From: Mya arenaria
Lineage: Eukaryota
DNA: 64,000 nt
Assembly: GCF_026914265.1 (NCBI RefSeq)
Contig: NC_069127.1
Coordinates: 1,681,682 to 1,745,681, forward strand
Reading direction: 5' to 3'
Made by a program: the position numbers and the translations under genes. Positions 24,408 through 48,900 of the stretch are shown here, piece by piece (the stretch's first letter is position 1; each line of letters starts with the position of its first letter). The notes beneath the pieces are model-generated. The model was not told the origin of the DNA, made no database searches, and saw only the letters and a list, made by a program, of their open reading frames with translations.

Positions 24408-24676
24408 GTAAACCATCTCTTGTTCTGTTGTCAGTTATGCTTGTTTAACAGGCTGTATGCTGCCATTATAGGGCATCAAACCCAGGAACCTTGCTTTTCC
24501 AATTAATCTAGCCCTGGTAACTCAGATACTCTCTCATCTATGTAATACCATATTGTAACAATTGTATTGGCTGTACATGTTTGTAGTTCTTTTATCTGAT
24601 GTGAGTTCTGACCTCACATGTTTTTAAGACTTAGATGATTTTAAAAACTTTAAATGATTTTAAAACATGTATATGT

Positions 24677-24868
24677 ATTTTAGAGTACCCATGTGGTATG
24701 CACCGACTCATGTATTTCAGAGTACTCATGTGGTATGCAATGACTTATGTATTTCAGAGTACTCATGTGGTATGCAATGACTCATGTATTTCAGAGTACT
24801 CATGTGGTATGCAATGACTCATGTATTTCAGAGTACCCATGTGGTATGCAATGACTCATGTATTTCAG
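24677..24868. repeat. tandem repeat with a 37-bp unit (AGTACTCATGTGGTATGCAATGACTCATGTATTTCAG) x5 in PARP4 intron 1; each unit contains a copy of the exon-2 acceptor plus the first ~29 nt of exon 2
   Basis: Direct repeats end exactly at the exon 2 boundary. Copies of TATTTCAG|AGTACTCATGTGGTATGCAATGAC match the real acceptor and the exon start. Confidence 0.85.
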
Positions 24869-25067
24869 AGTACTCATGTGGTATGCAATGACTCAGGCAA
24901 GGCTACAGACTCGTACAAGTGTCGTATGGGTGTGAAGTATGGGATCCCTGTTGTGTCCCCCCAGTGGGTGCATGCATGTCTAGAGGCAGGCAAGCTACAG
25001 AACACTGACAACTTTCTCATGTTAGGCGAGTCAAAGGCTGATGGCCTTAAAGAAGGAAAGATATCAG
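24869..25067 (+). CDS. PARP4: PARP4 exon 2 (rest of BRCT: STHVVCNDSGKATDSYKCRMGVKYGIPVVSPQWVHACLEAGKL..)
   Basis: The acceptor tatttcag at 24867-68 is the last copy of a tandemly repeated acceptor. Donor CAG|gtaggt at 25068, phase 1 out. Confidence 0.7.
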
Positions 25068-26176
25068 GTAGGTTTGTGCATAGTTTTGTGTATACCTTAT
25101 CTTGTGGTTATTTAGGGGACAGTATACAGTTATTTCATGGTTATTTGGGTAACAGTCGAAACTGTTGTCCCCAGGTGGAGGGCATGACATATGAATATAT
25201 GCCCAATGCCAGTTCATAATACCATCATGACACCAAGGGATAACAGTTTTGACTATTGCCAAAAATAACTGTTTTATTACTTGATCAAAATTTAAAAAAA
25301 TCAAATAAGCATTAATTATATGCATTCTAAAAAATAAAGTTTGGAAATTCCAATGATGTCATAGTGCGTGAGGGAAACATTTCAAATATCACCGCTTTGA
25401 TACCTGTTTGTGATGCTTTACAAACTATTGAAGTCAATTTTGCACCTTATTTAATTCATTATAATCTGTCTACACTGTATGTTATAGATAAGTCAACCCT
25501 TTAGTTAAGGTATGTCAGTGTTTAAGCTTATAGTTTTTAAAGATGCTTTTAGGGTTGGTTAGAGTTGAGATGTAGGATGGTACAAGTCAGTGTAAGCCTG
25601 ACCGGTTTAAATAAAAATAAATATGCTCTTGGTGGGCCTCAAAATACCCCTTTTAGGCATACCCTGGGACTATCTCAAAACTGCTGTGTTACAGAGAGGA
25701 TTAGATATGTTAGATGGGACATGTCAGTGTGAGTCTGGCTGGTTTAAATCTCCAGTGAGTTCTTATTTAAGTTTCCACTGACTGTGTCAAGGTGGTCAAA
25801 ACGATATTATGTGTTTATCATTATGTGACATTTGGTGTCCCTTGTTTTGGTCTTGAACCTTATCTTGGCAATATTTTAGGCTGCTGGGCTTGTTGGTACT
25901 TGGGTAGTTTTAAATGATAAAATGTCAGGGTTTGTTTTTACGCATTACTGGCAAGTACTTTTTATTTATATCCATATTTTGGTGTGAGACTAAAACAGTT
26001 ATATTAATGAAAGTATAGTAAACAACATTCAATATTACATTAAACAACTAAAACTGTAATAATTGAAAGTATAGTAAATAACATTTAATATTACATTATA
26101 CAAATTTTTTTGCCAAAATCTATCTGACATATTTCGATTTGTTTTACTACATCATCCATGTGTTAACGTTTTCCAG

Positions 26177-26325
26177 CTACAAGATATCAGAAGAAGGAGA
26201 AGAAGAAGGAGTTTAAGTCAGTTGTCAACGTTCACGGGATCAAGGCCTGGAGGGTTGAGGATAAGAACACGCCCTCGTATACAGATGACTATCAAGTGGC
26301 CAAGTTTGCCATGTTCAAAGGAGAG
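26177..26325 (+). CDS. PARP4: PARP4 exon 3 (..YQVAKFAMFKGE)
   Basis: Acceptor ttttccag at 26175-76, phase 1 in. Donor GAG|gtaaca at 26326. YQVAKF aligns with human FEVAKY. Confidence 0.7.
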
Positions 26326-26552
26326 GTAACAAAATATGGCAGCAGGCCCTGAAAAGTATTATTATATATTCTTGTCACATCCATTTGTAAAATAATGTAT
26401 ACCGGTATAAAAGATGTGACATTGGCTGAATGGAATAATTCTCAGAAACAAGTTGAATGTGAAAGCAACCATTTTAGAAATGAGATACATTGGCAGAGAT
26501 GTTGTGTTGTCAAGGCTTTTGTGAAAACTTGAGTTTCTCTCTCCTTCAACAG

Positions 26553-26690
26553 AAGACAGTTAAGAGTAAGATGCAGGCAACGTTTGCTGTCCTGGAGGTT
26601 CATGTTGATGAGGGTTTCCTGGCAGGTAACTCTACACACGAGTACAAGTACAGAGTATTCTCCCATAGCGGCCTGGTGCACACAGTCGAG
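26553..26690 (+). CDS. PARP4: PARP4 exon 4 (KTVKSKMQATFAVLEVHVDEGFLAGN..LVHTVE)
   Basis: Acceptor caacag at 26551-52. Donor GAG|gtagga at 26691. Confidence 0.7.
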
Positions 26691-27154
26691 GTAGGACTTG
26701 CTTTAAACTAATTTCTATAAGATTATTCTGATGATAGCTTACAGCTAATACAATTATTGTTGAATCTGTTCTTGGATAATCATCAGTTTTGGTCCTAATT
26801 TATAATCTCAAGTCCCCTTAACAGGCTTAAGCTAAGATCACTACAGTATTTTTGTATAGTATAAACTGTGTCATTTTCTTGCTTTAAAGTATTTTGATAT
26901 TTTTTAAGGAAATATTTTCATTAATTTAAGGGTTTTCCTGATCGACTGTGTTAAATTTCTTAAATGTTTTTAAGCAAGAGAGAATTAATAAAATATGATA
27001 CTTGATCATTACGTAAAATTATTTCGAGATATTGGGTCCATTTTGAGTGACATAAATAATTATGCTCCTGGTGAAACTCAAAACACCCGTTTTAGGCATA
27101 CCCTGGGACTACCTTACCTTTCTAAGCTTATATCTCAGAACTGCTGTGTTACAG

Positions 27155-27310
27155 AGAGGAGGTACAGGAGAGATGGAGGCCCGGTATTGTGGCAGTGTGG
27201 AGCAGGCCCTGGCAGTGTACAGTCACCTTTACGAGGAACAAGAGCGGGGCCTCATGGTACACACATACCAACCACCCACAAGCAACGCTGGATCCATGAA
27301 GTTCAGACAT
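27155..27310 (+). CDS. PARP4: PARP4 exon 5 (RGGTGEMEARYCGSVEQALAVYSHLYEEQERGLMVHTYQPPTSNAGSMKFRH)
   Basis: Acceptor gttacag at 27153-54, which lies inside a repeat-family copy. Donor CAT|gtaagt at 27311. Confidence 0.7.
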
Positions 27311-27719
27311 GTAAGTACATTTACTTGTCAACACCTTCATGTGTATTTGGTGACCACTTCATTTTATTATTAAAAATAGATATCAGTCCATACATAAAGC
27401 TTCTTGACATTGTAAAATTAAATTGTTCAGTTAAATACATTGTCCACTGAAATACTGTCTTAAATACATTCTGGATTTTTTTTATCCAGATCAGTCTTAT
27501 AATCACCAAGTCTGCACTAGTAGGTTATGTATATGGAACCATCCAAACGTTACCAGTTCATCATTTGTGGCATAACAACGCAGGATTGTTTTTTCATTTT
27601 TGAGTTGATTTTTAACATAAATTGAAATGATTATGGCAATGATATACTTATTAACATGTCAATTAAATTTTTTGTGGCCTTTAACAATAACAAGATAAGC
27701 AATTTTCAATTTTCAAGTA

Positions 27720-28455
27720 CAGTCGAAACTTGATGGCTCGATATTCTAGGGAACGGCCAAAATACTTCGAGCCTCGAGAATATCGAGCCAAACGGGATTG
27801 CTTAAACAATGTTATTTTTTTGTATTCGTTACAAAAAGTCTGGTTTACCTTGTTTGTTATTGGCTACACTATCTCCACAAGAGAAGAGTATTTATTGGAC
27901 ATAGTGCAGTTCGTAACATAACTTATTCGATATTTTGAAAATATCATTTGATTTTTTTTTATTATCATTAAAATACATTAATGCACAAAAAACACAATTT
28001 TTTTTTTTAAACATTGAGTAACACAAACATAGCTTATAAGTTATACCAAAGAGCATTGACATTTTTACATGGATAATAATTAGAGACAGAACTTAAAGTG
28101 ATGGCCTGTTTATTCAAACAGTTCAGTTAAACCATTTAAGTTTGATAATAATTATATTAAAATCCAGCAATTTTTATCGGTTAGCGCCTTGTGCTAAATG
28201 AAGCCAAGCAAACAATTCAAGGTGTGAGATTCTTACCTGAACCCGGGAAAATGACATCGACCCAAGCAAAGTGTGAAATTCTTACTCAGGACCGCGAAAA
28301 TGACATCGAGCGTGGAGAAATATCGACCCTCAAGATATCGAGCCATCTGATCGAATTTTCTATAAACAGAGTAATAAAAAATTGCTCTGTTTAAACTGGT
28401 TCGAGCCAACGAGGATAATCGAGCCATAAGATATCGAGCCAACGAGTTTCGACTG
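27720..28455. mobile_element. MITE (~736 bp), Tc1/mariner-like, TIR CAGTCGAAACTTGATGGCTCGATA.., TA flanks; in PARP4 intron 5
   Basis: Inverted termini at 27720 and 28455. TA at 27718-19 and 28456-57. Internal GGCTCGA motifs. Same TIR family as 23772..23937. Confidence 0.6.
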
Positions 28456-28923
28456 TATATCATTCGCAATCCAAACATTTCGGAAGATGTTGTGTTCATA
28501 AGATGATAATCAATATTGCCAAGGAAGGCTGTTCATTTAAGGAATGGAATTTTGCAGGGTGTAAATAATTTACTATAAGGCCACTTATATCACTGGAAAG
28601 TCAATAATGGAGACTCCCATTACCTTGAGTTGGTAAATCTATTTAAATATTTCAAAAGACCCATAAAATTGAAATATTTGTAAAAAAAATTTAATGAAAT
28701 ATAACAGGATTTTCATTTCCAACCTTGATACAGGGGAATGGCTTGTATGCCCAGACATCACTTTTATTGTTGGTAATTGCTTAAGATGTACTTGCGGCTC
28801 ATTGGGTATAATCTTACCGTTTGCAGCACACTTCAGTGAAAAGGATTGAAAAATGAATAAAAGGCACTCTTATAATATTGTGATTGTTTTTCAAACCTGT
28901 TTGAACCTCTTGTTTCCCCGTAG

Positions 28924-29061
28924 ATGATGGGAGAACTGGGGCTGGAAGGTGGAGAGATGTCAGAGAAGGTGGGGCAGCTGGTGGAACATGTTTGGCTCGA
29001 GGCACTTGGCAAATTGCAAGATATCCTCCTTACTGACATTGAAAACATCAAACTTGAACAG
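28924..29061 (+). CDS. PARP4: PARP4 exon 6 (PARP helical regulatory region: MMGELGLEGGEMSEKVGQLVEHVWLEALGKLQDILL..)
   Basis: Acceptor ccccgtag at 28922-23. Donor CAG|gttagt at 29062. Aligns to human SDLVEMIWAEALGHLEHMLL. Confidence 0.8.
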
Positions 29062-29618
29062 GTTAGTATGTTGGTATGTAAGTTTATGAGCTTGTCTGTT
29101 TTTCATTGAAAAAGGTAAGATTTTGTTTTAGCCTTGGTCTCATTGGCAACATCCTTGTACAAAAGCTTTAACCGTCGCCATAACTCAAAGAACGTTCAAG
29201 ATAAAGCATGGAAGAGAGACAATATTATAAGTTATGGGGCTAGTGGGTGACCCACTATGGGATAAACAGGGCAAAGGAAACTATATCGGGTGAAAGCGAG
29301 GCGCCGTTTTGGTATAATATAAATTTGGTGACCCAATATGGAAAAATATGGGGTCACCACGTGACCAGTCCTTGACCAATGGCATTGCGTGATTTATGTT
29401 GGAGGCATCAATCTGGTTTTAACAATGATCATGAATGCCTCTTATTCATTTGAAAAAAAGATAAGAACAGACAAGCATTGGAGTCTGCTCCAGTGTGGCC
29501 AAGCAGACGGCATGTGACAAGTTTAAAAATGAATAGACAGGGTTTTACAATGGAATCATTCTCTCAATTAATTCCAATAGATATTAAGCAATTTGAATGA
29601 TTGCATGGATGTTTGCAG

Positions 29619-29792
29619 GTAGAGAAAGCAGAAGCTGTGTTGAAGCAGGTACGGTCAGCCTTGGATACGGGGGATCAGGAGAAGGCGGTGAAACTGGCCC
29701 AGACATTCTACAGCACCATCCCCATTTTTAATGGCTTCAGCAAGGATGAGTGTAACAAGGCTTGGCTCTCCAAGCAACAAGATCTTTGCCAG
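29619..29792 (+). CDS. PARP4: PARP4 exon 7 (VEKAEAVLKQVRSALDTGDQEKAVKLAQTFYSTIPIFNGF..KQQDLCQ)
   Basis: Acceptor gtttgcag. Donor CAG|gttagt at 29793. Aligns to human ..AEQLQKMMTEFYRLIPHKG..KKADLCQ. Confidence 0.8.
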
Positions 29793-29879
29793 GTTAGTAA
29801 CACAAGTTTGGTCAAGGTCACAGCTGTAAGTTTCAAAGTGTAAGAGGTATTTCTAACTGGGCTATAAGGTTGTAAAATG

Positions 29880-30420
29880 TTATGCCGTATAGAAATTGAA
29901 TATATGAAAATCACATACAAAAAATAGTAACATTTAGCTGTTTTGATATGAAAAGAATAGTAACATTCAGCTGTTGAGATATGAAAAGAATAGAAACATC
30001 TAGCTGTTGAGATGTAAAAAGAATAGAAAAATTTAGCTGTTGAGATATGAAAAGAATAGAAACATTAAGCTGTTGAGATATGAAAAGAATAGAAACATTC
30101 AGCTGTTTTGATATGAAAAGAATAGAAACATTTAGCTGTTGAGATTTAGCTCTTGAGATAAGTAAAGAATAGAAACATTTAGCTGTTGAGATATGAAAAG
30201 AATAGAAACATTTAGCTGTTGAGATATAAAAAGAATTGAAACATTTAGCTGTTGAGATATGAAAAGAATAGAAACATTTAGCTGTTGAGATAAGGAAAGA
30301 ATAGAAACAATCTGACAGCTGTTTTGATATGAAAATAATATAAACATTTGGCTGTTGAGATATTAATGAATATAAATATTAGGCTGTTGAGATTTAGCTC
30401 TTGAGATAAGTAAAGAATAG
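29880..30420. repeat. minisatellite with a ~33-bp unit (GAAAAGAATAGAAACATTTAGCTGTTGAGATAT)n, about 15 copies, in PARP4 intron 7
   Basis: Direct tandem repeat. Minus-strand ORF 30132..30347 is a repeat artefact. Confidence 0.85.
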
Positions 30421-30601
30421 GAACACTCAGCTTTTGAAAAGTTGTGTGGTATCAAATCTACATTACATGCACATACTCAAGGATTTACTGTTTTTTTATG
30501 GAGTTGAGTCCGACCTGGTCCCAGTATCATTTGAAAAATATATCATTGGTCACTACTCTAGTGCCAACAACAACAATAACAACGACTACTTATAATTTTA
30601 G

Positions 30602-30762
30602 CTGATCAAGGACATGTTGTCAGTGAGTGAGGCGACAGACTGGTCAACCCAGTCAAGCACACAGTCTAAGTACCGTGCACTCAGGTGCCAGGTTACTAGT
30701 CTACCAGAGGATGGGACAGAGTATGAAACTGTCAGGGAAAACTTCTATGATTCAATGATTGG
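30602..30762 (+). CDS. PARP4: PARP4 exon 8 (start of PARP catalytic domain: LIKDMLSVSE..KYRALRCQVTSL..)
   Basis: Acceptor aattttag at 30600-01. Donor TGG|gtatgt at 30763, phase 2 out. Aligns to human LIRDMVNVCE..KYRALRCKIEHV. Confidence 0.8.
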
Positions 30763-31431
30763 GTATGTATGTTTTATAATGCTTGCAGTCATATTACATG
30801 TAGTTTTGATGTTCACTTATGGCAGTTATTTCTTCAGGTGTTGTTAAGACTTACTTAACATGACAAGAGTGTCTTGAGTTTGTTTTAACCATAGTATATG
30901 GTATGTGTCAGTATGCCTACCCCTGCGGCATGACGTGTCTCAATTCCTACTCAACACCACAAAAGAGTCTGAGTTTGTTTCAAACCATAATATATTGTAT
31001 GTGTCAGTATGCCTCTCACTGTGCCATGAAATGTCTCAATTTCTAGTCCTACACTGCTGCTGATAATGATGAAGGATACAAAATTGGTGTTACTTCCTTA
31101 TACATTAGAATAACACCAGATATGTTTTTCTGGCATAATTTGTGATCATGTCATATTTCTAGTTCTGAAAAATACTCTGTTAAATATTGATAGTTCAGGT
31201 TTGTACTGGTACGTAACTTACTTGATATTTTGCTCCCCAGTACACTGGTCAAACAGCCTTAAGCACTGTATAGCCACTGTAGCCGCCAGCCTGTATATCA
31301 TTTTGTAAGATATGGGGGAAAATATAATAATTTAACAGTTTTCACAAGACACCGCTAGCTAGACAGAGCTGCATGGCCCTGGGTGAGCTGGTTTATTGTG
31401 TTACACATAAAAACAAAACAAATGTTGTTAG

Positions 31432-31575
31432 TTTCAGTGCAAGCGACGTCGAGATCCAGGCGATATATACAGTAAACAGACCAGTTGAGACCGCAAATTT
31501 TGCAAACAGCCTGAGTAACCCTCAATTACTGTACCACGCTACCAAGGCCAACAATATGGTTGGGATTTTGTCCAG
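31432..31575 (+). CDS. PARP4: PARP4 exon 9 (..VEIQAIYTVNRPVETANF..LLYHATKANNMVGILSR); in-frame alternative acceptor 6 nt downstream (31438)
   Basis: Two acceptors, gttag| and tttcag|, separated by 6 nt and both in frame. Donor CAG|gtagga at 31576. His of the H-Y-E motif is present (YHAT). Confidence 0.7.
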
Positions 31576-31769
31576 GTAGGAAGAAATAATAATACTGTAA
31601 AATACATTGTATTTAGCTTGATGCTTCAAATCCCAGCACTGATTTCTATTGGAATTAATAGATCAATTGCTTGCTTGTCAATAGGGGTATGCAATATGTC
31701 CTGTCTTGAGCACATATATACATGAATTCTGTTTTTAGTATGATAACAATGACCTACATTGATTTCCAG

Positions 31770-31868
31770 AGGTCTGATGATGCCACGTGTAGTAGTTGAT
31801 GACCACGGAGGTAAAAGGTCAGATCCAGGCATGCTCGGGTCAGGCATCTATTTCGCCAGTGCTGCAAG
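31770..31868 (+). CDS. PARP4: PARP4 exon 10 (RGLMMPRVVVDDHGGKRSDPGMLGSGIYFASAA)
   Basis: Acceptor atttccag at 31768-69. Donor AAG|gtggga at 31869. GSGIYFA is the PARP signature, Tyr present. Confidence 0.8.
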
Positions 31869-33347
31869 GTGGGAATACTTTTGAATACATTTCTATAATT
31901 TTCGATTCGACTCTCAACAAATGAAAGTTCATATAGGAAAACAGAGTCGCAAGTAAAAGATTTTAGATATATGGTTAGTTACATTTGAAGATCAAATCTT
32001 TGTTACCAGCTGCCATAAGTATAAAACTGGATAAGTTATACACAGTTTTTTGGCTAGTTTGCTCATAATACCTATTTGATTGGTCAACAGTAAGTATTGG
32101 ATAGGTTTTGACCAATCAATAAACATTTTGGCTAATTTTAACCAATCCAACGAATTAACCAGTTTTATACCATTGGTTACTGGTTAAAACAAGATAAAAA
32201 GAGTTCTTTTTTGCAAATTTTACATACTAAATTTCTGCTTAATATACAATATTTGGAATTTTTAGATGGGATCTCAAAATGTGATTTGGGATCTCACAGC
32301 TGACACTGTAAGAGTTTTAGACATAAAATAACAAATTCTTGCAAAAAGGGCTTCTCTCATAAAAAAATCAACACAAAGTTTTTAAGAACACAATATCTTT
32401 TTATGAAGTATCCTGAAAACAGTCTTTCAGCCTAGTAAAGTATTTATTTCATTTTTATTATTATGGAAAACTCCCATTTCCTTTTCAATTCAAGTTCATT
32501 CTTAAAATAATGGGTTTTAACTGCAAATGTTTTGCCATTTAAAGGATAATCAAGTTTGCCACATTTCAGCCAATTTTGATAACATTTGATTGAAAAACAA
32601 CAATTAATTATCACTAAAAAACTCACCTCTATAGTAGGTTTAGTACATTTTCAATACTGATCTTCTTACATAGTAAATGATTTTAATACAGCAAAAGCAT
32701 TCAAGCTGTTATATTATGTTCCATGTTAAAATACCATATTAATCTGTCAATTTAAATAACATGGTGCAATAAACAACTTGTCAAAAAACTTCATACTTCG
32801 GCCGACATCATTGCCTAGTTACAAGTATGCTACAAAAGACCACCAACTTATTAAAGACATTATAAAACTGTCAAAACAATAAAGAAAACAGCATTTCCAA
32901 GGTGTTATTAATTATCTACAGTGTATAAAATTTAACAACATTTTGGCAGGAAAATTGACATATACAGTTCTGCAGTCATCTGCACTTACACTCCGACCTG
33001 TTAGGGCAGTCTGATTTGATTTATTAAGCAGCTCTTCTGAATATAAACTTATTTTTACAAGTCAGAGGAAATATTCCTTCTGTTTCTCAATCAAAATCAC
33101 TGACATTTGACAATCTCCACCATGACGTATTTTTTATGAGTATTTTCTGAAAATCTAAAAATAGTAACAAATATCAAGTTTTTGTTTACATTGTTTCCAT
33201 CATTGTTTTTGATTGAAAATTAAAGGGATTAGAAATTCTTCCACTTTTGAACCCAAACTACCGCTTTTGAGAGCTAAATCTACCTCCTTGTCATTGCGAA
33301 AGGTTCACATGTGCCCTCAGTCATATCACCATCTATTGCAATTTCAG

Positions 33348-33531
33348 CACAAGCGTCAAGTACTCCTCTCCTAGCAACAGCAAGGGTACTCGGTTCATGT
33401 TAGTGAATGAGGTCGCCCTGGGCAACTGTAAGGAAATGTACAACCGTGACCTGACCTTGACCCAACCCCCAGAAGGCTATGACAGCATACATGGTGTGAT
33501 GAAGTCATGTGATGTTCAGTCAGAGTTTCAG
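33348..33531 (+). CDS. PARP4: PARP4 exon 11 (STSVKYSSPSNSKGTRFMLVNEVALGNCKEMYNRDLTLTQPPEGYDSIHGV..)
   Basis: Acceptor aatttcag at 33346-47. Donor CAG|gtgaaa at 33532. Near-identical to human STSIKYSHPGETDGTRLLLICDVALGKCMDLHEKDFSLTEAPPGYDSVHGV. Confidence 0.85.
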
Positions 33532-33934: not shown

Positions 33935-34250
33935 TGTTAATCCTGTAAACTCATCTCAGGAAAGTTGAGCACGCCACAATAAATGTGTAATCCTGTAAAC
34001 TCATCTCAGGAAAGTTGAGAACACCAAAATAAATGTGTAATCCTGTAAACTCATCTCAGGAAAGTTGAGCACACCACAATAAATTTGTAATCCTGTTAAC
34101 TCAGTTTAGGAAAGTTGAGCACACCACAATAAATGTGAAATCTTGTAAACTCATCGTAGGAAAGTTAAGCACACCACAATGAATGTGTAATTCTGTAAAC
34201 TCATCTTAGGAAAGTTGAGCACATGGCCATTAATATGTAACTTTCCTGCA
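33935..34250. repeat. tandem repeat with a ~60-bp unit (TAATCCTGTAAACTCATCTCAGGAAAGTTGAGCACACCACAATAAATGTG)n, about 5-6 copies, ending at the exon 12 acceptor
   Basis: Direct tandem repeat in intron 11. Confidence 0.8.
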
Positions 34251-34251
34251 G

Positions 34252-36262: not shown

Positions 36263-36288
36263 CAAATAATACAAATATGTCCTTGTAG

Positions 36289-38170: not shown

Positions 38171-38284
38171 GAGCAGACTGGTACTTTTGAAGTACTGCAG
38201 GGTGAGACAAGTGTACAGATATCCGTGGATATGCCATTTGACATCCGGTCATTAGAGTGCCCCTCACACAATGTCAAAATGAAG
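38171..38284 (+). CDS. PARP4: PARP4 exon 16 (EQTGTFEVLQGETSVQISVDMPFDIRSLECPSHNVKMK)
   Basis: Acceptor tttttgcag at 38169-70. Donor AAG|gtaatt at 38285. Confidence 0.75.
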
Positions 38285-39457: not shown

Positions 39458-39531
39458 CATTTAAAGAGCTGTACCCTGTGTGTATGCCTAAGACCACAGC
39501 ACGTGTGAAACAGGCTTCAAACTTTATCATG
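39458..39531 (+). CDS. PARP4: PARP4 exon 19 (AFKELYPVCMPKTTARVKQASNFIM)
   Basis: Acceptor gatttcag at 39456-57. Donor ATG|gtatga at 39532. Confidence 0.7.
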
Positions 39532-39806
39532 GTATGAATGACACATGCACGTGTATCTGTATTAAGTTTTGATGTACTTTATTTTTGATAAAACTATTGG
39601 TTAAAGATCTTGAAATATTCTTTAATGGTTGGTACTATAGTTAGCACATTAATTTGATGTCATTTCACACCTAGTAAACTGTCTGTCTATATATATTCAG
39701 TACAGTTTAATATTCTTACATTTGACTGGTTTGTTGTCTAACGTTAAAGGGTCATCAGATTTAGGGTATTCCTGTTTTTGCATTTTGAACTATTTTGTTT
39801 GTGCAG

Positions 39807-39994
39807 GGCTTGACAGCAACCCTTGGCAACACGGAAGTTATCCGACCCATGCACACATTCTACCTGCTGAAGCCTGAGTCATCCATGCAGAACGTCTTCC
39901 TCATCTCTGATGGACACGTGAACAACACGGACGTAATATTGGAGGCAGCCAGGCGGAATGCAGAACATACAAGGATTTTTACCATGGGTGTCAG
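39807..39994 (+). CDS. PARP4: PARP4 exon 20 (vWA: GLTATLGNTEVIRPMHTFYLL..VFLISDGHVNNTDVILEAARRNAEHTRIFTMGV)
   Basis: Acceptor tttgtgcag at 39805-06. Donor CAG|gtgatt at 39995, phase 2 out. Human MGNTDF..ILLVSDGHLQDES..RPHTRLFACGIG. Confidence 0.85.
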
Positions 39995-40454
39995 GTGATT
40001 ATAGTTTGTGCTTTTAAACACAATCTACATTAAATAAAAAAAATGTCTTTGTCCTCCTGTGTGAAAAGTTCTAAATGTTTGTGATTGTGATCTTAAGTGT
40101 TTATATTTTCAACCTATCTCCTTGCTCTTGTAATGGCTGCCATGTGAAACTTCATACAAGTTGCATTGTGAGCACTGTTTATCAATTTTGGGTGTAAGAT
40201 TTTCAGAGGTGTCCATTTAAGAAAAAGAAGACCATTTTCATGTTCATCAATTTATCTGAATAGAATTATCGTCATAAACAGAATGATGATACTAGTAGAC
40301 CTTATACAACGACAACAGCAACATCAACAACAAACTATTTGAACTGAGGTTAAACTATGCCACTAGGATTCTACAAAAAAAACTGTATTTAAGAATTCAA
40401 TACATATATTTGAAATCACACAATTGTAACTACATGCAAACAATGTATTACCAG

Positions 40455-40554
40455 CTCGACAGCAGACACCCACATGTTGAGATCCCTGGCCAGGGTTGGA
40501 GCAGGGGCCTATGAGTTCTTCGATCCCAAAGTCAAGTCCAAGTGGGAGGGAAAG
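40455..40554 (+). CDS. PARP4: PARP4 exon 21 (SSTADTHMLRSLARVGAGAYEFFDPKVKSKWEGK)
   Basis: Acceptor ttaccag at 40453-54. Donor AAG|gtaaga at 40555. Human STANRHVLRILSQCGAGVFEYFNAKSKHSWRKQ. Confidence 0.85.
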
Positions 40555-40955
40555 GTAAGATGGGATTTATGCTGAGCTATTTTCATTCATTTTGCATTCA
40601 ATTTTTATCATGATCTCATCTGTTTGTGATCAAGTTTTAAAAATATATTTGTATCAATTAAAATCTGAAATGTCAGCTGTTATTTTAAACCATTTAGGAT
40701 ATTTTAATGACTCTTGGCACACATGTTCATAATGACATAACCCACATATTATTATAATTATAATCAGGGGTGAGAATCTTGCATGGATTGAGTTTTTTGT
40801 CTTCTAAGCAAATATCTTTAAATGCAATCTTTAAGGCTTGTAAAATACTCCAAACCCAAGTTTTGAGAGGTCTTCACCCCCTGTGTCCCCTACCAAGGTC
40901 GTACCCTGGACCACTAGCGTAAAGTTCAGGGATTTTTCTATTCAGTCATTCTAAC

Positions 40956-42007
40956 TAGGGATGCAAACGAATATTCGAATATTCGAATATTCGATCAAAC
41001 GTTTGGTATTCGAATGGCAAAATCGGTATTCGAATATTCGAAAAAAATGTTGAATAAATAAAATAAAAAAACCTTTGACCTACAAGGCTGCAATTGTGTA
41101 TTTAGTTCTTTTGTCATGTTTTTACAATGATTGGCCCCTAATGCCAGAGGTGTGAATGTGATGACAATACACTAAACACGCGTCATATGTCATTTAGGGA
41201 CATATCGCCTGGTACTATAAAAAGTCCCCGTAATTTTACAACTTGCTATTGGACAAGTGACACCAATGCCTTTGCCAATTAAGGATTTAAGGAAACGGCC
41301 TTCACACTAATGTGCTGTCTTGGTTCACACTGATGTGCTATCTTGGTTCACACTAATGTGCTGTCTTGGTTGCAGATTAAGCTATGCAACATTGCTCAAA
41401 TTGCCGTGATACTATGTATGGCATTTGCTACAATAATGCAGATACATGTATGTGCTGTTAACTGTTTTCCATGTTTCGTTGCACTGTTCTTGCTTTGAAA
41501 TGTTACTGTATAGTATAGCGTTTTAGGATATATTGCCTCTATTGATGTAGAAGAATCAAATTGATATATGTTTCGTTTTATCATTTTACAAGTTCCCGAG
41601 TTGGTTTGGTATATAAGGTAGAGGTCTATCCCAGAACGAGACTGCTCGTCCTACGGAAAGACCCTCCGTTGGCTCATTACGCCATATGATTAGGAATCCA
41701 TCTAATTTCACATTGTTTCACAATATGAAGGCAGCGGAATTATTCGATTTTGATTTTTGATTGTTCATAATGAATTACCGTTTTCTATATAAAAATGGGG
41801 AATTTCAGAGACTCATATGGGGAAATAAGGGTCCGCTGCGCGTAGTTGCTACAACAAAGAAGGATCAAAATGAATTGGCTATTACTTAAGCGAATGATAA
41901 TAATAGTTTAATACAACTTTGAAAAGATGTATTTTGGTTATCGAATATTCGATTGAAAGAATTACCGAATATTCAAATATCAATTTTGCCATTTGTTTGC
42001 ATCTCTA
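40956..42007. mobile_element. non-autonomous hAT-like element (1052 bp) with Ac-like TIRs TAGGGATGCAAAC / rc TAGAGATGCAAAC and a perfect 8-bp TSD ATTCTAAC; in PARP4 intron 21
   Basis: TSD at 40948-55 and 42008-15. The TIR resembles the Ac/Ds terminus TAGGGATGAAA. Subterminal GAATATTCGAATATTCG repeats at both ends. Confidence 0.65.
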
Positions 42008-42094
42008 ATTCTAACCCCTGCTTTGTGATAAATCTCATCATTTGATTATGACTTGCCATGATCTAATACTGACAACCATATCTACATATGGCAG

Positions 42095-42265
42095 GTGAAA
42101 AGCCAGCTAGGGAGGGCATCCCAGCCAGGGCTGACGTCTGTGCATGTGAACTGGGAGCAATATGGGGCTGATGTCCCGTCCCCTGTGCAGGCCCCTCGAC
42201 AGATCACAGCAGTCTTCAGTGGATCCAGACAAGTCATATATGGATATGTCCAGAACTGTACGATG
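42095..42265 (+). CDS. PARP4: PARP4 exon 22 (VKSQLGRASQPGLTSVHVNWEQYGADVPSPVQAPRQITAVFSGSRQVIYGYVQNCTM)
   Basis: Acceptor atatggcag at 42093-94. The donor ATG|gtgcga at 42266 is weak and is supported only by frame continuity into the next exon. Confidence 0.65.
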
Positions 42266-42599
42266 GTGCGAAAACAGTTATATACAACCCTTAAATGCAT
42301 TTAATATCTTGGTTTGCAACTTGTACATTTTAATGATTATTTTATAATGATATTATTATTATTAAGTTCTTTTGGACACAGCGGTGCTCAGAGAAATGTT
42401 ATACACAATTGGATTAAATGCTTTCTTAAATCTCTATCTCAGGAGTGTCATGTGATCATTCTAAATATAACAATCATGATTCTCTGAAATTAAAAGCTGC
42501 AGTTGCATTTTTCCAGTAATTTTTATTCTTTTGATTTTAAATATTGTTTCATTTGAAAATAAGCATAATGTAAGACAGTTACTCTAAGGTGTAAATAAG

Positions 42600-43050
42600 T
42601 ATTGGTTATTGAATTTAATCAAGTATGGTTATTGAATTAAATTAAGTATTGGTTATTGAATTAAATTAAGTATTGGTTATTGAATTAAATTAAGTATTGG
42701 TTATTGAATTTAATTAAGTATTGGTTGTTGAATTTAATTAAGTATTGGTTATTGAATTTAATTAAGTATTGGTTATTGAATTAAATTAAGAATTGGTTAT
42801 TGAATTAAATAAAGTATTGGTTATTGAATTTAATTAAGTATTGGTTGTTGAATTTAATTAAGTGGTGGTTATTGAATTTTATTAAGTATTGGTTATTGAA
42901 TTTAATTAAGTATTGGTTATTGAATTAAATTAAGTATTGGTTATTGAATTTAATTAAGTATTGGTCATTGAATTTAATTAAGTATTGGTTATTGAATTTA
43001 ATTAAGTATTGGTCATTGAATTTAATTAAGAATTGGTTAGTGAATTGATT
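42600..43050. repeat. minisatellite with a ~30-bp unit (GTTATTGAATTTAATTAAGTATTG)n, about 14 copies, in PARP4 intron 22
   Basis: Direct tandem repeat. Confidence 0.85.
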
Positions 43051-43149
43051 TGGCCACCTCTAAATTGTTTTATTTCCTGAAGCCTGTGATTTTCTAATGT
43101 ATTATAGCTGCCTCAGTGTAAGTACATGTTACACTCAATGTGTCTTCAG

Positions 43150-43230
43150 GCAACATTACGAGCCCAGATAGCAGGTGATGAGGTCTCCACCATGGTCTCC
43201 ACCTCTGACCTCAGCATTACAGAAGGCAAG
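43150..43230 (+). CDS. PARP4: PARP4 exon 23 (ATLRAQIAGDEVSTMVSTSDLSITEGK)
   Basis: Acceptor gtcttcag. Donor AAG|gtatgg at 43231. Human QATLCALIQEKEFRTMVSTTELQKTTG. Confidence 0.8.
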
Positions 43231-43534
43231 GTATGGTGTTGAAATAAGACAAGCATTTTCAAGTGAATGTCTTCTCAACAGACAATTCTTAAAGACACAC
43301 ATATGAAGGACAAAACCTTTTTTTTATTTGAAATATATTTCATGCATTTTGTAGATAATACCAATGAAATTGACACAATGTTTAAACTTTTTTTCCAAAA
43401 GTATTTTCAAGTAAAATGGAATCTTGTATCTTCTGAAATATCTTATATGATAAGTCGGTGAAAAATGGATATTGCCATGTTTATGGCTTAATTCAAATGA
43501 CTGTGTCATCTCATGTTGAAACTGTTTTCTACAG

Positions 43535-43615
43535 CTCCTGCACCGTTTAACAGCAAGGGCAGTAATTCGGGACTGGGAGGATGGAATGCTCTCCCCTGAC
43601 AGGACAGACCATGAG
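43535..43615 (+). CDS. PARP4: PARP4 exon 24 (LLHRLTARAVIRDWEDGMLSPDRTDHE)
   Basis: Acceptor ttttctacag. Donor GAG|gtgggc at 43616. Human MIHKLAARALIRDYEDGILHENETSHE. Confidence 0.85.
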
Positions 43616-43639
43616 GTGGGCTTATTGTATGAAGATTGA

Positions 43640-44200
43640 AATCTAGGACCAGGATTAAATGATGAACATGGAAATAAGTGATATGGTTTACTTGATGAAC
43701 ATAATATGGGATCTGGCTTAGGTTATGACCATAAAAATGCAGGATCTGACTGAGGTCACTGATGTGTAAACGTACATGTAGGCTCTGGCTTTTGTCATGG
43801 CCATTAAAATGTAGGATTTGGCTTAGTCCATGACTACATATATAAATGAACTGGCATATTCTTTGATATTGGAAATGCAGAATCTAGCTTAGTCTATAAT
43901 TTTTAAATGCAGAATCTGGCTTAATTTATGCTGTGGAAATGAAGAATCTGGGAAAAACAGTATATGGCTTAGGCTATGACCACGGAAATGTAGGATCTGG
44001 CTTAGTCAATGACCATGGAAATGTTGGATCTGGCTTAGTCAATGACCATGGAAATGTAGGATCTGGCTTAGTCTATGACCATGGAAATGTTGGACCTGGC
44101 TTAGTCAATGACCATGGAAATGTAGGACCTGGCTTAGTCAATGAACACAGAAATATAGGCTTAGGCTTGGCCTATGACAACAGAAATGTAGGATCTGGGA
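43640..44200. repeat. minisatellite with a ~33-bp unit (ATGACCATGGAAATGTAGGATCTGGCTTAGTCA)n in PARP4 intron 24
   Basis: Direct tandem repeat. Track ORF 43933..44322 (DHGNVGSGLVN repeats) is an artefact. Confidence 0.85.
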
Positions 44201-44287
44201 AAGAAGGTATCTGGCTATGTGTATGGACAGGAAATAGTAAGATCTTCCTCATACACATGAAAATGCATATTATTTTGTTGATTTCAG

Positions 44288-44389
44288 ATCATGAAGATGA
44301 ACACAAAGGACTTTATAATTGAGCTGAGCAAGGAGTATTCAATTGTGACACAGTTTACCAGCTTTGTTGCCATAGAGAAGAGAGACAAG
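44288..44389 (+). CDS. PARP4: PARP4 exon 25 (IMKMNTKDFIIELSKEYSIVTQFTSFVAIEKRDK)
   Basis: Acceptor gatttcag at 44286-87. Donor AAG|gtgggt at 44390. Human SLIIKLSKENSLITQFTSFVAVEKRDE. Confidence 0.85.
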
Positions 44390-44938
44390 GTGGGTAAGAA
44401 TGGTTGAGAAACACATGTTTATATTGCCCATGGTTTCTATACATCCTCTAACAAAGTTTAAAGGGGGTATATTTAAGTTTCAATTTGGTTGGTTGGTTAG
44501 GTGGACAGTCTTACGGCAGCCAACTTATTTCTTAGTTTACGAGGGAATGTTCCTAAGCTTAGAACCACAATGAAGTGTTCTTCTGCATAACAGATTGTTA
44601 TCAGTCAGCAATGTGGCTCAAGAATTACATGCTGCTGCACTTGAACTTAGATGCAATGCATATAGGCTATGACAGGAGTTTGTGAAGCCACCACTTCCAA
44701 CACAGTGTCTTTATCAGAACAAAACTTTTCACATAAAATTGTCACTGATAGATGTTACAGTAGTAAAATTAGAGGGATGTCAGCAACATAATTTAAATGT
44801 TTGCTTAAATCATAGACAAAGAATAGTTCTGTTTCTATTAATTTTATTAAAAGATATATGGTATACAGAAAAAGGTGAAAGATGTTTCTTGAAACTGTGA
44901 TTCCTTTTAAGCTGTCATGTCCATTTTTGTATGTTCAG

Positions 44939-45031
44939 GATGAGGAGAAGAGGTCAGTGGATGCGCCGGCGATGTCAGAGCTCGTGGAGAGGGAGGATGT
45001 GGACAAACTGCAGTACATGGGATATGAGGAG
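44939..45031 (+). CDS. PARP4: PARP4 exon 26 (DEEKRSVDAPAMSELVEREDVDKLQYMGYEE)
   Basis: Acceptor atgttcag at 44937-38. Donor GAG|gtatgg at 45032. This donor is duplicated about 12 times in the following intronic minisatellite. Confidence 0.75.
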
Positions 45032-45039
45032 GTATGGCT

Positions 45040-45730
45040 TGGCTGGGTTCAATGATATGAGGAGGGGGGCCTGGTGGGTTGAATCTAGGTTTTTTTTTCA
45101 ATCATATAAGGAGGTATGGCCTAATTGCTGGAATTTAGGGGCGTTTAATGATCTAAGGAGGTACGGCTTGGTGGCTGGAATCTAGGGGATGTTCAATGAT
45201 ATGAAGAAGTTTGGCCTGGTTGGGTGGAGATTAGAAGGTGTTCAATGATATGAGGGGTATGGCCTGGTTGGGTGGAGTTTAAAAGGTGTTCAATGATATG
45301 AAGAGGTATGGCCTGGTTGGGTGGAGTTTAGAAGGTGTTCAATGATATGAGGAGGTATGGCCTGGTTGGGTGGTATTTAGGGTTGTTCAATGATATGAAG
45401 AGGTATGGCCTGGTTAGGTGGAATTAGGGGCAGCTCAACGATATAAGGAGGTATGGCCTGGTAGGAAGGAACCTAGGGGGTGTTCAATGATATGAGAAGG
45501 TATGGCCTGATTGGGTGGAATCTATGGGGTGTTCAATGATATGAGGGGGTTTGGCCTGGTTAGTAGGAGTTTAGAAGGTGTTCAATGATATGAAGAAGTA
45601 TGGCCTAGTTGGGTTGAGTTCAGACGGTGTTCAATGATATTAGGGGGTATGGCCTGGTGGGCAGAATCTAGGGGATGTGCAATCATATCAGAAGGTATGG
45701 CCTGGAGGGTGGAATCCAGGGAGTGTTATG
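45040..45730. repeat. minisatellite with a ~57-60-bp unit (..TGATATGAGGAGGTATGGCCTGGTTGGGTGGAGTTTAGAAGGTGTTCAA..)n, about 12 copies, starting at the exon 26 donor; each unit carries a copy of the exon-26 3' end plus the GAG|GTATGG donor
   Basis: The repeat begins inside exon 26 (TATGAGGAG|GTATGGC) and propagates that sequence through intron 26. Confidence 0.85.
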
Positions 45731-45946
45731 TTTTGAAGTTGAATGTATTAGTTGATCTGTTTTCAAACTACGAGATGTCACAAATTTGGATTGTTTGTCT
45801 TCAGGGTTGTAGGTATAATTGTTATGAATGAAAAATTACATTTTGGACAAACTTATGCAATTGGTCAAAATTTTATAAATCAGTTCAGTTATTTCCTTAC
45901 AATTCTTGGTTTTATAATCCTGTAACCGTATGACAATATATACCAG

Positions 45947-46123
45947 GAGATGAAGCCTGATCTGGACTATGATAAGGAGATTGCTGCTGTGCTGACCAAC
46001 GTGAGACTTAACTTCATGTCACAGCAGAAACAGGTTGAGTTTCTCAAACATGGGTTCCAACTTCTTGAAGATGGTTCGTTCAGGGATAATGATTACGAGG
46101 CATGGCTACAGAAGAATAAAGAG
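45947..46123 (+). CDS. PARP4: PARP4 exon 27 (EMKPDLDYDKEIAAVLTNVRLNFMSQQKQVEFLKHGFQLLEDGSFRDNDYEAWLQKNKE)
   Basis: Acceptor tataccag at 45945-46. Donor GAG|gtttgg at 46124 (weak). Open frame of 59 codons. Confidence 0.65.
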
Positions 46124-46559
46124 GTTTGGTTTTTGTTTAAACATAGTTATCTGATTCACATATCTTAATGTGTACACTTGTATGTTCAGTAAAGAAAATG
46201 AATGTGTAAACATGCAGTTGATAATGTTTTTGTATATATATGCTTATGTATATTTCAAACACTTATTTGGTGCATTACGAAAACATACTCATAATCATTG
46301 TCTCTATATTGATACACTCTGGCCAACCTAGAATTCAATGTAATACTGTACATGTGACGTTTGAGGTTTAATTATCGTAATTTTTATATTTCTTACATAT
46401 TCGTTGACAAACACTTGACATGGAGCGGGTCTTTAAGAAAACTTGACGTAACTGAGAAATATGTCCTCATTAAAGTCTCATGTGATAAAAGTAAGAATGG
46501 TGATGCCCATGCTGTAACATACTTTAGCGCTTGTGGTTTTACATGTTTTTTTCCGTAGT

Positions 46560-46830
46560 GTAAAATGTTTAGGCTTTCATGGTGTAACATGTTTAGGCGT
46601 CCATGGTGTAGCATGTTGTGGAGCCCATGGTGTAGCATGTTTTGGGCCCATGGTGTAGCATGTTTTGGGCCCCATGGGATAACATGTTTTGGTGCCCATG
46701 GTGTTACATGCTTTGGAGCCCATTGTGTACCATGTATGGAGCCCATGATGTTGCATGTTTTGGTGCCCATGGTTAAACTTGTTTTGGGGTATACCATGTC
46801 TTGGGGCCAATGGTGTAACATGTTTTGATA
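46560..46830. repeat. minisatellite with a ~30-bp unit (GTGTAACATGTTTTGGAGCCCATG)n, about 9 copies, in PARP4 intron 27
   Basis: Direct tandem repeat. ORFs on both strands (46393..46930) are artefacts. Confidence 0.85.
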
Positions 46831-46981
46831 TCATGTTAATGTACATAATCCTTTTATGGTAGTTCACTACCATGGTATTTTTGATGAATAATATACCTGA
46901 TAGGATGCCAAGAAGTTGTGTTTTCATCAAATTACAAATTAATATGACAGAGTAAGAATGTAATGTTTGGCTTTCTTTCAG

Positions 46982-47057
46982 CTTGAGGAGGTTTATGATG
47001 ATTGGGACTTAGATGAAGACTTCAACTTTGAATCGACTTTCATGAGAAAAAGAATGA
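46982..47057 (+). CDS. PARP4: PARP4 exon 28 (LEEVYDDWDLDEDFNFESTFMRKRM)
   Basis: Acceptor ctttctttcag at 46980-81. Donor ATGA|GTGAGT at 47058, phase 1 out. Confidence 0.65.
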
Positions 47058-47089
47058 GTGAGTTTTTATCATCATCATCATCATAGATC

Positions 47090-47420
47090 AATAGGTCAAA
47101 GGTCAAGGTCAGAGTCAATAGTTAAGAAAGACTGCTGAATTACCATTGGATGTTTTGAACTAGGTCCATAAATCTTCATCAGTAAATTACTCTTCACCAG
47201 TAGAGGACATCTATTTTGTAGTTTTAAAGGTCAAGGTCATAGTCAATTGTCTTAGGAAAACTTTGTTGGCACAATAACTAGAGAACAGTTTGACCTTGGC
47301 AAAAGAAACTTCAGTGATTGGTTGCCCTTGACTATGTGATGACCCCTATTTGTGATTGGGCATCAGTTGATCCAAGGTCATATTCACAATTAACAGTCTT
47401 ATAAAGACTTCGACTGCAGT
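47090..47420. repeat. copy of a dispersed ~150-bp repeat family rich in GGTCAAAGGTCAAGGTCA / TGACCCCTAT motifs
   Basis: Shares its motifs with the four tandem copies at 51400..51960. Confidence 0.5.
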
Positions 47421-47583
47421 GCAAAGTTTAAAATGTTCATCTTCAAGTTCATAAAATACTTGATGCAACCGACATTAACCACTGCATTTGTCTTAAAACA
47501 CCTTTATTCAATTGTCCACACCTTTTTGAAAAAGTGTCACTTTAAGGACATAATGGTTGATAAACATCTATTGTTTTTTTAAG

Positions 47584-47687
47584 GTCAGCCAAAGAAGCAG
47601 CCACTGATAAATGTGAATGTTAGAACTTTAACTGGGAAAACAGTGAGTGTTGATGCCTCCCCTCACTCTTCTGTGGAGGAGTTAAAG
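47584..47687 (+). CDS. PARP4: PARP4 exon 29: first half of the ubiquitin-like domain (SQPKKQPLINVNVRTLTGKTVSVDASPHSSVEELK)
   Basis: Acceptor ttgtttttttaag at 47582-83, phase 1 in, which matches exon 28. Donor AAG|gtaagt at 47688. NVRTLTGKTVSVD parallels ubiquitin IFVKTLTGKTITLE. Confidence 0.7.
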
Positions 47688-47689
47688 GT

Positions 47690-48900
47690 AAGTGTTGATG
47701 CCTTCCTCTGTCTACTGTGGAGGACCTAAGGGTGAGTGTTGATACTTCCCCACTTTCTACAGTGGAGGGCTTGAATTTGGGTTTTGATGTTTACCCTCTC
47801 ACTATAGAGGGCTTGAAGGTGGGTGTGTGCACCTCCCATCTCTCTACTTTAGAGGACTTTAATGGTGGTGTTGATGCCTCCCCTCTTTTTACTGTGGAGA
47901 GATTAAATGTGGATGTAGATGACTCCCCTGTCTCTAATCCCCTTTCTACTGTGGAGAGCTTGAAGGTGGGTGTTTGCGCCTCCCATCTCCCTTATCTATT
48001 GCCTTTACTCCCCTCTCTCTACTGTGGAGGGCTTGAAAGTGGGTGTTGATGCCTCTGCTCTCTCTATTGTGGAGGGTTGAATGTGGGTGTTGATGCCTCT
48101 GCTCTCTCTATTGTGGAGGGCTTGAAAGTGGGTGTTGATGCCTCTGCTCTCCCTATTGTGGAGGGTTGAAAGTGGGTGATGATGCTTCCTCTCTCTACTG
48201 TGGAGGGCTTGAATGTGGATGATGATGCCTCCACTCTCTATTGTGGAGGGTTGAAAGTGGGTGTTGATGCCTCCCATCTCTCTATTGTTGAGGGTTGAAA
48301 GTGGTTGTTGATGCCTCCTGTCTTTCTATTGTTTTGGGTTGAAAGTGGGTGTTGATGCCTCCCATCTCTCTACTGTTGAGTGTTGAAAGTGGGTGTTAAT
48401 GCCTCTCCTTTCCCTACTGTTAATGGTTGAAAGTGGGTGTTAATGCCTCCTGTCTCTCTACTGTTAAGGGTTGAAAGTGGGTGTTAATGCCTCCTCTCTC
48501 TATTGTTGTGGGTTGAAAGTGGGTGTTAATGCCTCCTCTCTCTATTGTTGTGGGTTGAAAGTGGGTGTTAATGCCTCCTCTCTCTATTGTTGTGGGTTGA
48601 AAGTGGGTGTTGATGCCTCCTGTCTCTACTGTTGAGGGTTGAAAGTGTGTGTTAATGCCTCCTGTCTCTATTGTTGTGGGTTGAAAGTGGGTGTTAATGC
48701 CTCCTGTCTCTACTGTTGAGTATTGAAAGTGTGTGTTGATGCTTCCCTCTCACTACTTTTGAGTATTGAAAGTGTGTGTTGATGCCTCCCCTCTCTCTAC
48801 TGCTGAGGGCTTAAACATGGGTGTTGATGCCTCCCCTGTCTCTACGCCACTCCTCTCTTTACTTTGGAGGGCATGAGGATGGTTGTTGATGCTTTCCCTC
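47690..48900. repeat. minisatellite with a ~57-63-bp unit (GTGGGTGTTGATGCCTCCCCTCTCTCTACTGTGGAGGGCTTGAAA)n, about 20 copies, in PARP4 intron 29; derived from the exon-29 3' end (GTTGATGCCTCCCCTCACTCTTCTGTGGAGGAGTTAAAG|GTAAGT)
   Basis: The array starts at the exon 29 donor and its unit is recognisably homologous to the last 40 nt of exon 29 plus the donor. Track ORFs 47717..48049 (+) and 48005..48277 (-) are artefacts. Confidence 0.85.

Follow-up and report, generated by a model that had tools for sequence, protein, structure and literature searches.

Minisatellites that lie across an exon boundary and reiterate its splice site within the intron have been described in a few human genes and in amphioxus. 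Here we analyse three arrays of this kind, denoted (a), (b) and (c), in a PARP4-like gene of the bivalve Mya arenaria. The gene is located in a 64-kb stretch of contig NC_069127.1, and this whole stretch is further referred to as the window. The arrays were noticed in a preliminary description of the same DNA, in which the phenomenon was not recognised as one already described.

The human F7 gene carries in intron 7 a polymorphic variable number tandem repeat (VNTR) with a 37-bp unit present in 5–9 copies, the first of which spans the exon 7 boundary. The array provides 4–8 identical 5' pseudo-sites and, through 5'-to-3' scanning, splicing takes place exclusively at the most upstream site (PMC1557585). 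Similar cases were listed by Borensztajn et al. (2006) for IFI6/6-16 intron 2, CBS intervening sequence 13 (IVS13), LMNB2 and PDGF intron 4. Constitutive use of the first one or two pseudo-sites is seen in IFI6 (the first two of 25) and in CBS, whereas the copies in F7, LMNB2 and PDGF are silent (PMC1557585).

In amphioxus such arrays, called 'mirages', were described for Adh3, the globins BflGb6 and BflGb9, TnC and PGBD5. They occur at donors and at acceptors, do not disturb splicing as judged by reverse transcription PCR (RT-PCR), vary in copy number from one haplotype to another, and have edge copies that escape homogenisation (PMC3087553, PMC3902484); a mirage of the acceptor type splices normally (PMC3087553). 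A general model has also been proposed in which an intron is gained when an exon segment containing AGGT is duplicated in tandem (PMC3087553).

All three arrays of the PARP4-like gene are head-to-tail intronic tandem arrays with units in the range of 10–160 bp. In each of them the terminal unit includes exon sequence together with the authentic splice junction, and the splice signal is reiterated in other units as pseudo-sites. The arrays thus have every sequence-level trait of the boundary-spanning class and represent its molluscan cases, a new phylum for a class that is already documented. A search of the literature library used here for bivalve reports on minisatellites and splice sites found none.

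Gene model and array-bearing junctions

The window is of eukaryotic origin and contains a great many minisatellites. Its open stretches matched the BRCT, PARP catalytic, VIT, vWA and ubiquitin profiles in Pfam, and a protein search gave PARP4 fragments of bivalves (Crassostrea, Tegillarca, Solemya) and vertebrate PARP4 as the closest named relatives of a gene situated on the forward strand at ~24.3 to 49.4 kb of the window. No protein from the same species was present in the protein collections, the top matches being 60–85% identical. The gene model was constructed by mapping homologues with tblastn and then joining 28 coding cores by frame-consistent GT/AG sites. It contains 28 coding exons (3957 nt) and a stop-free open frame of 1318 aa. 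The model protein matches Pfam profiles BRCT (2–79), PARP (351–526), VIT (584–696), VWA_3 (819–970) and ubiquitin (1237–1308), and the order BRCT, PARP catalytic, VIT and vWA is that of PARP4. PARP4_MVP-ID (PF26156, the C-terminal MVP-interaction domain) was not among the Pfam matches of the model, which may miss exons.

The model protein terminates in a ubiquitin-like domain (UBL) that shares 59–66% identity with ubiquitin and has LRGG at its end. A UBL is absent from canonical PARP4. Either this end represents a fusion specific to the lineage, or the UBL exons are part of another transcript; joining them to PARP4 is a modelling assumption whose whole basis is a canonical acceptor and frame continuity.

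The junctions that carry arrays belong to exons 1/2, 25 and 27 of the 28-exon model, so the intron numbers 1, 26 and 29 used previously are approximate. The relevant features are listed below; slashes mark exon boundaries.

24285–24407, forward strand: exon 1, the first coding exon; N-terminal half of BRCT; donor AAGAAG/GTAAAC, phase 0; frame-consistent join
24673–24895, forward strand: array (a); Tandem Repeats Finder (TRF) period 37, 6.0 copies, 95% matches
24869–25067, forward strand: exon 2 (STHVVCNDSGK...); second half of BRCT; first 26–27 nt inside array (a)
44939–45031, forward strand: exon 25 (...VDKLQYMGYEE); donor GAGGAG/GTATGG; last 11 nt inside array (b)
45021–45713, forward strand: array (b); ~15 units of 49 bp, counted by hand
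45947–46123, forward strand: next model exon; best frame-consistent join, with an uncertain acceptor position and a weak donor of its own
47589–47687, forward strand: UBL exon, N-terminal third of the domain (...TLTGKTVSVDASPHSSVEELK); donor TTAAAG/GTAAGT; last 45 nt (47643–47687) are unit 1 of array (c)
47643–48925 (end position approximate), forward strand: array (c); ~28 units of 42–46 bp
49251–49424, forward strand: last exon, rest of the UBL (...LRGG, then the stop codon); acceptor TTTTTTTACAG/GCG, in unique, non-repeat sequence

All three arrays reported at exon ends are present, each lying over an exon boundary of the frame-consistent model. The BRCT and ubiquitin profiles are contiguous only if the exon-adjacent sites are used: the BRCT match continues through the exon 1/2 junction and requires the acceptor at 24868/24869, and positions 1–72 of the ubiquitin profile are contiguous over the 47687/49251 junction. 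The repeat units were defined by TRF as 37 bp for (a), 49 bp for (b), and 45 and 42 bp for (c). Alignment of the units to the exon ends gave 26/26 identical positions for (a), 10/13 for (b) and 41/45 for (c). The similarity to exon ends exceeds chance by a wide margin in the case of (a) and (c), and for (b) it is adequate.

The unit of array (a), ATGTATTTCAG/AGTACTCATGTGGTATGCAATGACTC, consists of 11 nt of the intron end and 26 nt of the exon 2 start, the overlap with the exon being 26–27 nt. Its acceptor AGs end at 24683, 24720, 24757, 24794, 24831 and 24868; the sixth copy holds the authentic acceptor (exon start at 24869), and five acceptors are extra. The units are identical to the authentic copy at 33–37 of 37 positions, with two inner copies identical throughout and the outermost one the most diverged (33/37). 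The exon part of the unit, previously given as 29 nt, is 26 nt.

In array (b), to which TRF assigned 45097–45713 with period 49, 12.8 copies and 79% matches, the first unit spans the donor after 45031 (GATATGAGGAG/GTATGGCTTGG) and is only 33 nt long. The consensus of the array is GATATGAAGAG/GTATGGCCTGGTTGGGTGGAGTTTAGAAGGTGTTCAAT, so that a unit brings 11 exon nt followed by GTATGG. The overlap with the exon is short (11–13 nt; the 10/13 identity of exon end and consensus was computed), while the 28-nt junction matches the unit copies carrying GATATGAGGAG at 26 of 28 positions, as counted by eye. The array indeed starts inside the exon and copies its donor GAG/GTATGG, as had been noted; the period is 49 bp instead of ~60 bp, and GTATGG, believed to be present in every copy, is kept in 10 of the ~14 intronic ones.

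Array (c) was resolved by TRF into two parts, 47643–47936 (period 45, 6.6 copies, 70%) and 48012–48841 (period 42, 19.2 copies, 87%). Its proximal units of 44–46 bp are diverged, and the distal block of 42–44-bp units is more uniform. Unit 1 coincides with the final 45 nt of the exon, where VSVDASPHSSVEELK of the ubiquitin fold is encoded; the level of similarity between unit 1 and the consensus is found nowhere else in the window. The GTGAGT at the start of this exonic unit precedes the authentic GTAAGT by 45 nt, and the intron begins with GTAAGTGTTGATGCC, a homologue of the GTGAGTGTTGATGCC that lies in the exon 45 nt earlier. Homology of the unit to the exon end had been noted before; its length is 45 and then 42 bp instead of ~60 bp.

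Origin of the arrays and splice-site choice

A search with unit dimers (blastn) found no copies of the units outside the arrays in the window or in the Tegillarca granosa PARP4 locus. Therefore an origin from a dispersed element was rejected, and the arrays are best regarded as local duplications of ancestral exon ends. Copying evidently ran from exon to array, as the exon parts encode conserved residues of the BRCT and ubiquitin folds with contiguous profiles; for (b), the exon is likewise the source because its end, ...VDKLQYMGYEE, is shared with the homologous Tegillarca exon, ...VDFLSYMQYEDE. The claim that the arrays derive from exon ends and multiply the splice signal is therefore upheld.

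The percentages of matches suggest that array (a) is young (95%), array (b) is older (79%), and array (c) combines an old proximal part (70%) with a younger 42-bp block (87%). Diverged edge copies and uniform inner blocks, as seen in these arrays, are typical of minisatellite turnover.

Creation of an intron by tandem duplication was considered and rejected, since the far ends of all three introns are unique sequence: in none of them do both splice sites originate from duplicated copies. At (c), neither the acceptor (49250) nor the ~325 nt before it are repeat-derived, which suggests that this intron pre-existed or has another origin. None of the arrays has created a new intron.

Splice sites were scored with position weight matrices built from the gene's own introns, the three array junction sites being left out. 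The real donors of the gene score 8.0 ± 2.1 and the real acceptors 9.1 ± 2.4. Many array copies score as high as the authentic sites. The six acceptors of array (a) score, in order, 3.5, 6.4, 6.1, 4.8, 4.8 and 4.8, the last being authentic. In array (b), 7 of the 10 copies retaining GTATGG score 8.0–8.2, compared with 8.2 for the authentic donor. Array (c) contains about 20 donor-like copies. Its authentic donor at 47688 scores 9.4, the copies at 47732 (6.0) and at 47819 and 47966 (8.9 each) come next, and 13 copies of GAAA/GTGGGT (5.1) follow.

Each choice of a non-authentic site leads to an early stop. As expected from 37 being 3n+1, a point made correctly before, any upstream acceptor of (a) shifts the frame and yields STHVVCNDSCISEYSCGMQ* or a variant of it differing in one residue, with the stop within 19 codons. 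Read-through past the donor of (b) meets TGA after 24 nt, within 8 codons. At (c), the intron opens with a unit of 44 nt and an in-frame TAA is situated 42 nt beyond the donor, so the suggestion that this array could add VDASPLSTVEGLK-like units to the UBL in frame has to be abandoned.

These observations would be accounted for by the following sequence of events. Slippage or unequal exchange would duplicate a segment of 37–49 bp across a junction or ending at it. The duplication may be tolerated, given that one splice site next to the exon would still yield normal mRNA; at (b) and (c) this is the first donor, at (a) the last acceptor. Arrays internal to an exon would not be tolerated. The arrays could then expand on the intron side, again by slippage or unequal exchange, and decay. 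The host genome is exceptionally minisatellite-rich. The reiterated copies would be pseudo-sites, either ignored by the splicing machinery or giving rise to early-stop transcripts that would be removed by nonsense-mediated decay (NMD). For the donors of (b) and (c), the F7 rule predicts that the first, authentic site is used. The outcome of acceptor choice in array (a) is truly uncertain, and earlier splice-site duplication experiments cited together with the F7 work gave conflicting results (PMC1557585). Overall, with a probability of about 0.75, we interpret the arrays as 'mirage'-type minisatellites, that is, neutral, tolerated duplications of splice junctions that expanded in introns.

Repeat load, related loci and rival explanations

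TRF identified 29 separate arrays in the window, covering 21.6% of the sequence. In the PARP4-like gene, tandem arrays occupy 21.5% of the intron DNA (13 arrays versus 54 internal boundaries), and several short introns are mostly filled by them. No array lies wholly within an exon of the gene, as expected under selection. The intronic arrays at 33938–34223, 42592–43046 and 43870–44198 end 29–90 nt from an exon and include no exon sequence.

The recurrence of junction-spanning arrays was evaluated by seeding units of the observed lengths uniformly along the gene, the range of the results reflecting the required overlap. The expected number was 0.32–0.77 compared with three observed, P(≥3) = 0.003–0.037; these values are nominal only, as the window had been flagged for this very feature and they are uncorrected for such post-hoc selection. 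At an expectation close to 0.5, three such arrays would arise by chance in roughly 1% of large genes.

The orthologous locus of Tegillarca granosa contains a fourth case:

L001 (Tegillarca granosa PARP4 locus; CM056596.1), positions 11946–12438 of L001: array of 95 bp × 5.2 copies, 94% matches

This array repeats the 3' part of the exon ...MPFDIREIECTSHKIRMK together with the donor ATGAAG/GTAAGT and ~21 nt of the intron, and all repeated copies lack 3 nt that are present in the exon copy. In the window, the exon homologous to this one (38201–38284) is without an array, and no array follows the Tegillarca exon homologous to that of (b); the available Tegillarca locus stops short of the BRCT exons and showed no UBL, so the comparison there is limited to (b). 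Tandem arrays make up 30% of this locus, and just one of the many spans a junction. In the repeat-poor locus of Solemya (4.8% arrays), no boundary-spanning array was found. Two loci from intron-poor organisms (L003 and L004) were set aside in the comparison of introns. Since the arrays of Tegillarca and of the window are at non-homologous exons and Solemya has none, the phenomenon appears to be lineage-specific and not tied to a position, and to follow the repeat load. A separate observation concerns the Solemya velum locus (L002), where the called gene at 1–9477 on the reverse strand (855 aa) matches PARP4_MVP-ID and lies directly upstream of the PARP4 fragment, on the strand opposite to it; this suggests either another PARP4-related gene arranged head-to-head or an annotation that was split wrongly.

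Several points weigh against the interpretation of the arrays as neutral, tolerated duplications. Three junction-spanning arrays exceed the expectation, an excess that would not follow if they were purely neutral by-products. At array (a), the authentic acceptor (4.8) is no better over positions −20 to +3 than the copies (up to 6.4), and each unit contains, as noticed by eye, the branch-point-like TACTCAT ~30 nt upstream of the next AG; mis-splicing at this array thus seems quite possible. That the authentic sites are used in this gene and the copies are silent is what we infer from sequence. The gene model is self-built and may have missed some exons in the longer introns. Its C-terminal end has a weak donor upstream of the UBL exons, a UBL was not found in the Tegillarca locus, and a PARP4 C-terminal orthologue with a UBL was not recovered in a search that was swamped by polyubiquitins.

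The same excess, together with the Tegillarca case and the many examples noted in the amphioxus literature (PMC3087553, PMC3902484), would fit a genuine hotspot, with junctions as preferred birthplaces of minisatellites due to slippage between direct repeats resembling splice consensus or to a process coupled to transcription or splicing. The GTGAGT of (c), exactly 45 nt before GTAAGT, forms with it a 5/6 direct repeat one unit apart and is a plausible substrate for slippage. However, a near-copy of the donor hexamer occurs within the last 60 nt of 6 of the 27 exons and only one of these has an array, so this microhomology was rejected as a specific trigger of (c); nothing comparable is visible for (a) or (b). 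Given also the nominal status of P, the 1% of large genes expected to contain three arrays, and the single junction-spanning array among the many of the Tegillarca locus, we consider a hotspot unlikely. Accordingly, the earlier proposal of nucleation at exon ends stands as far as derivation from exon ends is concerned, whereas its implied special mechanism is weakly founded, three arrays against 0.3–0.8 being only nominally significant. The arrays might also be functional, either as banks of decoy sites through which an adjustable share of transcripts would become frameshifted NMD targets, or as binding platforms for U1 or U2AF that determine how efficiently splicing proceeds, with the copy number serving as a heritable dial. 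The first of these would be regulated unproductive splicing, which the preliminary description had raised beside splicing noise. Many copies do match the strength of the authentic sites, all of them lead to premature stops, and the constitutive use of the first one or two pseudo-sites in IFI6 and CBS provides a precedent (PMC1557585). On the other hand, the arrays occupy different positions in Tegillarca and in the window species, their copies show no evidence of selection and are decaying (donors lost in (b), weak GAAA/GTGGGT sites and indels in (c)), and the copies in F7, LMNB2, PDGF and the amphioxus mirages are silent; a function is therefore very unlikely. A bolder combination, in which the junctions of minisatellite-rich bivalve genomes are hotspots of minisatellite birth and the banks of copies, via unproductive splicing, act as heritable, copy-number-tunable brakes on gene output or else serve as material for intron sliding, is speculative and, in our opinion, improbable.

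Addition of peptide repeats by the arrays, used as exon extensions or mini-exons, would be suggested by the open frame at 47699–48046 (116 aa) in the proximal part of (c), which encodes V(D)ASPLSTVE(G)LK-like repeats. However, because of the 44-nt first intronic unit this frame is out of register with the exon, whose own frame is closed by the TAA at 42 nt; the distal units of (c) contain TGA and TAA, arrays (a) and (b) run into their stops within 19 and 8 codons, the units have no acceptors, and the ubiquitin fold is contiguous only when the whole array is spliced out. A coding role was rejected on these frames, stops and domain continuity, and we regard it as hardly credible. Nor is it at all probable that the repeats were falsely expanded or mis-joined at exon edges during assembly. 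Tandem repeats are generally error-prone and the copy number of (c) could be mis-estimated, but nothing specific points to an artefact: the copies differ by graded substitutions and indels, array (a) is only 223 bp long, 29 arrays are spread across the window, and an independent assembly of another species contains a structure of the same type.

The window contains a number of other features.

9390–9695 and 9941–10162, forward strand: exon-like stretches matching the scavenger receptor cysteine-rich domain (SRCR; E 4e-8 and 4e-11), from a gene of its own upstream of PARP4
13008–16787: 55-bp unit × 69, 3.8 kb, 92% matches; ~50% GC versus the 35–38% background
20135–21767: 30/90-bp array with a strong C-over-G skew, open in all three forward frames (up to 375 codons); no Pfam match
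25553–25729 and 26992–27200: dispersed copies in PARP4 introns, sharing the motif NT.FRHTLGL...QNCCVTER
3251–3520 and 7855–8133: inverted dispersed copies, 82% identical
55119–55397, forward strand: exon-like open frame in which a 21-bp coding repeat gives 4–5 SPAYSLT heptads after an acidic stretch; weak match to the C-terminal repeat of RNA polymerase II Rpb1 (Pfam E 2e-6)
55594–56409 and 63168–64000: inverted pair of arrays with ~200-bp units, 70–95% identical to each other
58199–60307, reverse strand: uninterrupted open reading frame of 703 aa between the inverted arrays; no Pfam match

The dispersed copies are probably an interspersed element unrelated to the arrays at exon ends. The inverted arrays and the 703-aa frame resemble a mobile element whose ends are formed by long inverted arrays; its right arm extends beyond the window.

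Relation to described systems

The arrays extend to molluscs a phenomenon of a few human genes and amphioxus, and its occurrence tracks the minisatellite load: tandem arrays constitute 21–30% of the two loci where it is observed and 5% of the one where it is not. Knowledge of PARP4 itself is unchanged. In annotation such arrays are a trap, as a gene predictor that picks one of the repeated sites can output a model that is frameshifted or truncated. Array (a) provides a natural test of 3' splice-site choice, having six acceptors 37 nt apart, three of which are identical from −37 to +26, and arrays (b) and (c) could extend the test of the F7 rule of 5'-to-3' donor scanning beyond mammals.

The arrangement of F7, with the first unit over the exon–intron boundary and the donor reiterated, is also that of arrays (b) and (c) and of the array in Tegillarca, and pseudo-donors of the GTGGGT type occur in the clam arrays as they do in F7. 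Apart from the phylum and the gene, the differences are that there are three arrays per gene, one of them at the acceptor side, that (c) has a whole unit inside the exon, and that the clam copies are more decayed. Site usage and copy-number polymorphism were demonstrated experimentally for F7, whereas the clam arrays are known from sequence alone.

Likeness to the intron-gain model is seen at (c), where the duplicated exon segment starts with GTGAGT after AAG and each copy offers a donor. Unlike in that model, the acceptor of (c) at 49250 is not derived from the repeat.

With the amphioxus mirages the clam arrays share the possibility of several arrays per gene, units within 10–160 bp, and edge copies left out of homogenisation. 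Array (a), composed of the intron 3' end and the 5' part of the exon, is of the BflGb6 type. The clam is a mollusc and amphioxus a cephalochordate, and the RT-PCR and haplotype evidence comes from amphioxus only. The creation of new introns proposed for mirages is unsupported for the three clam introns, whose far ends are unique.

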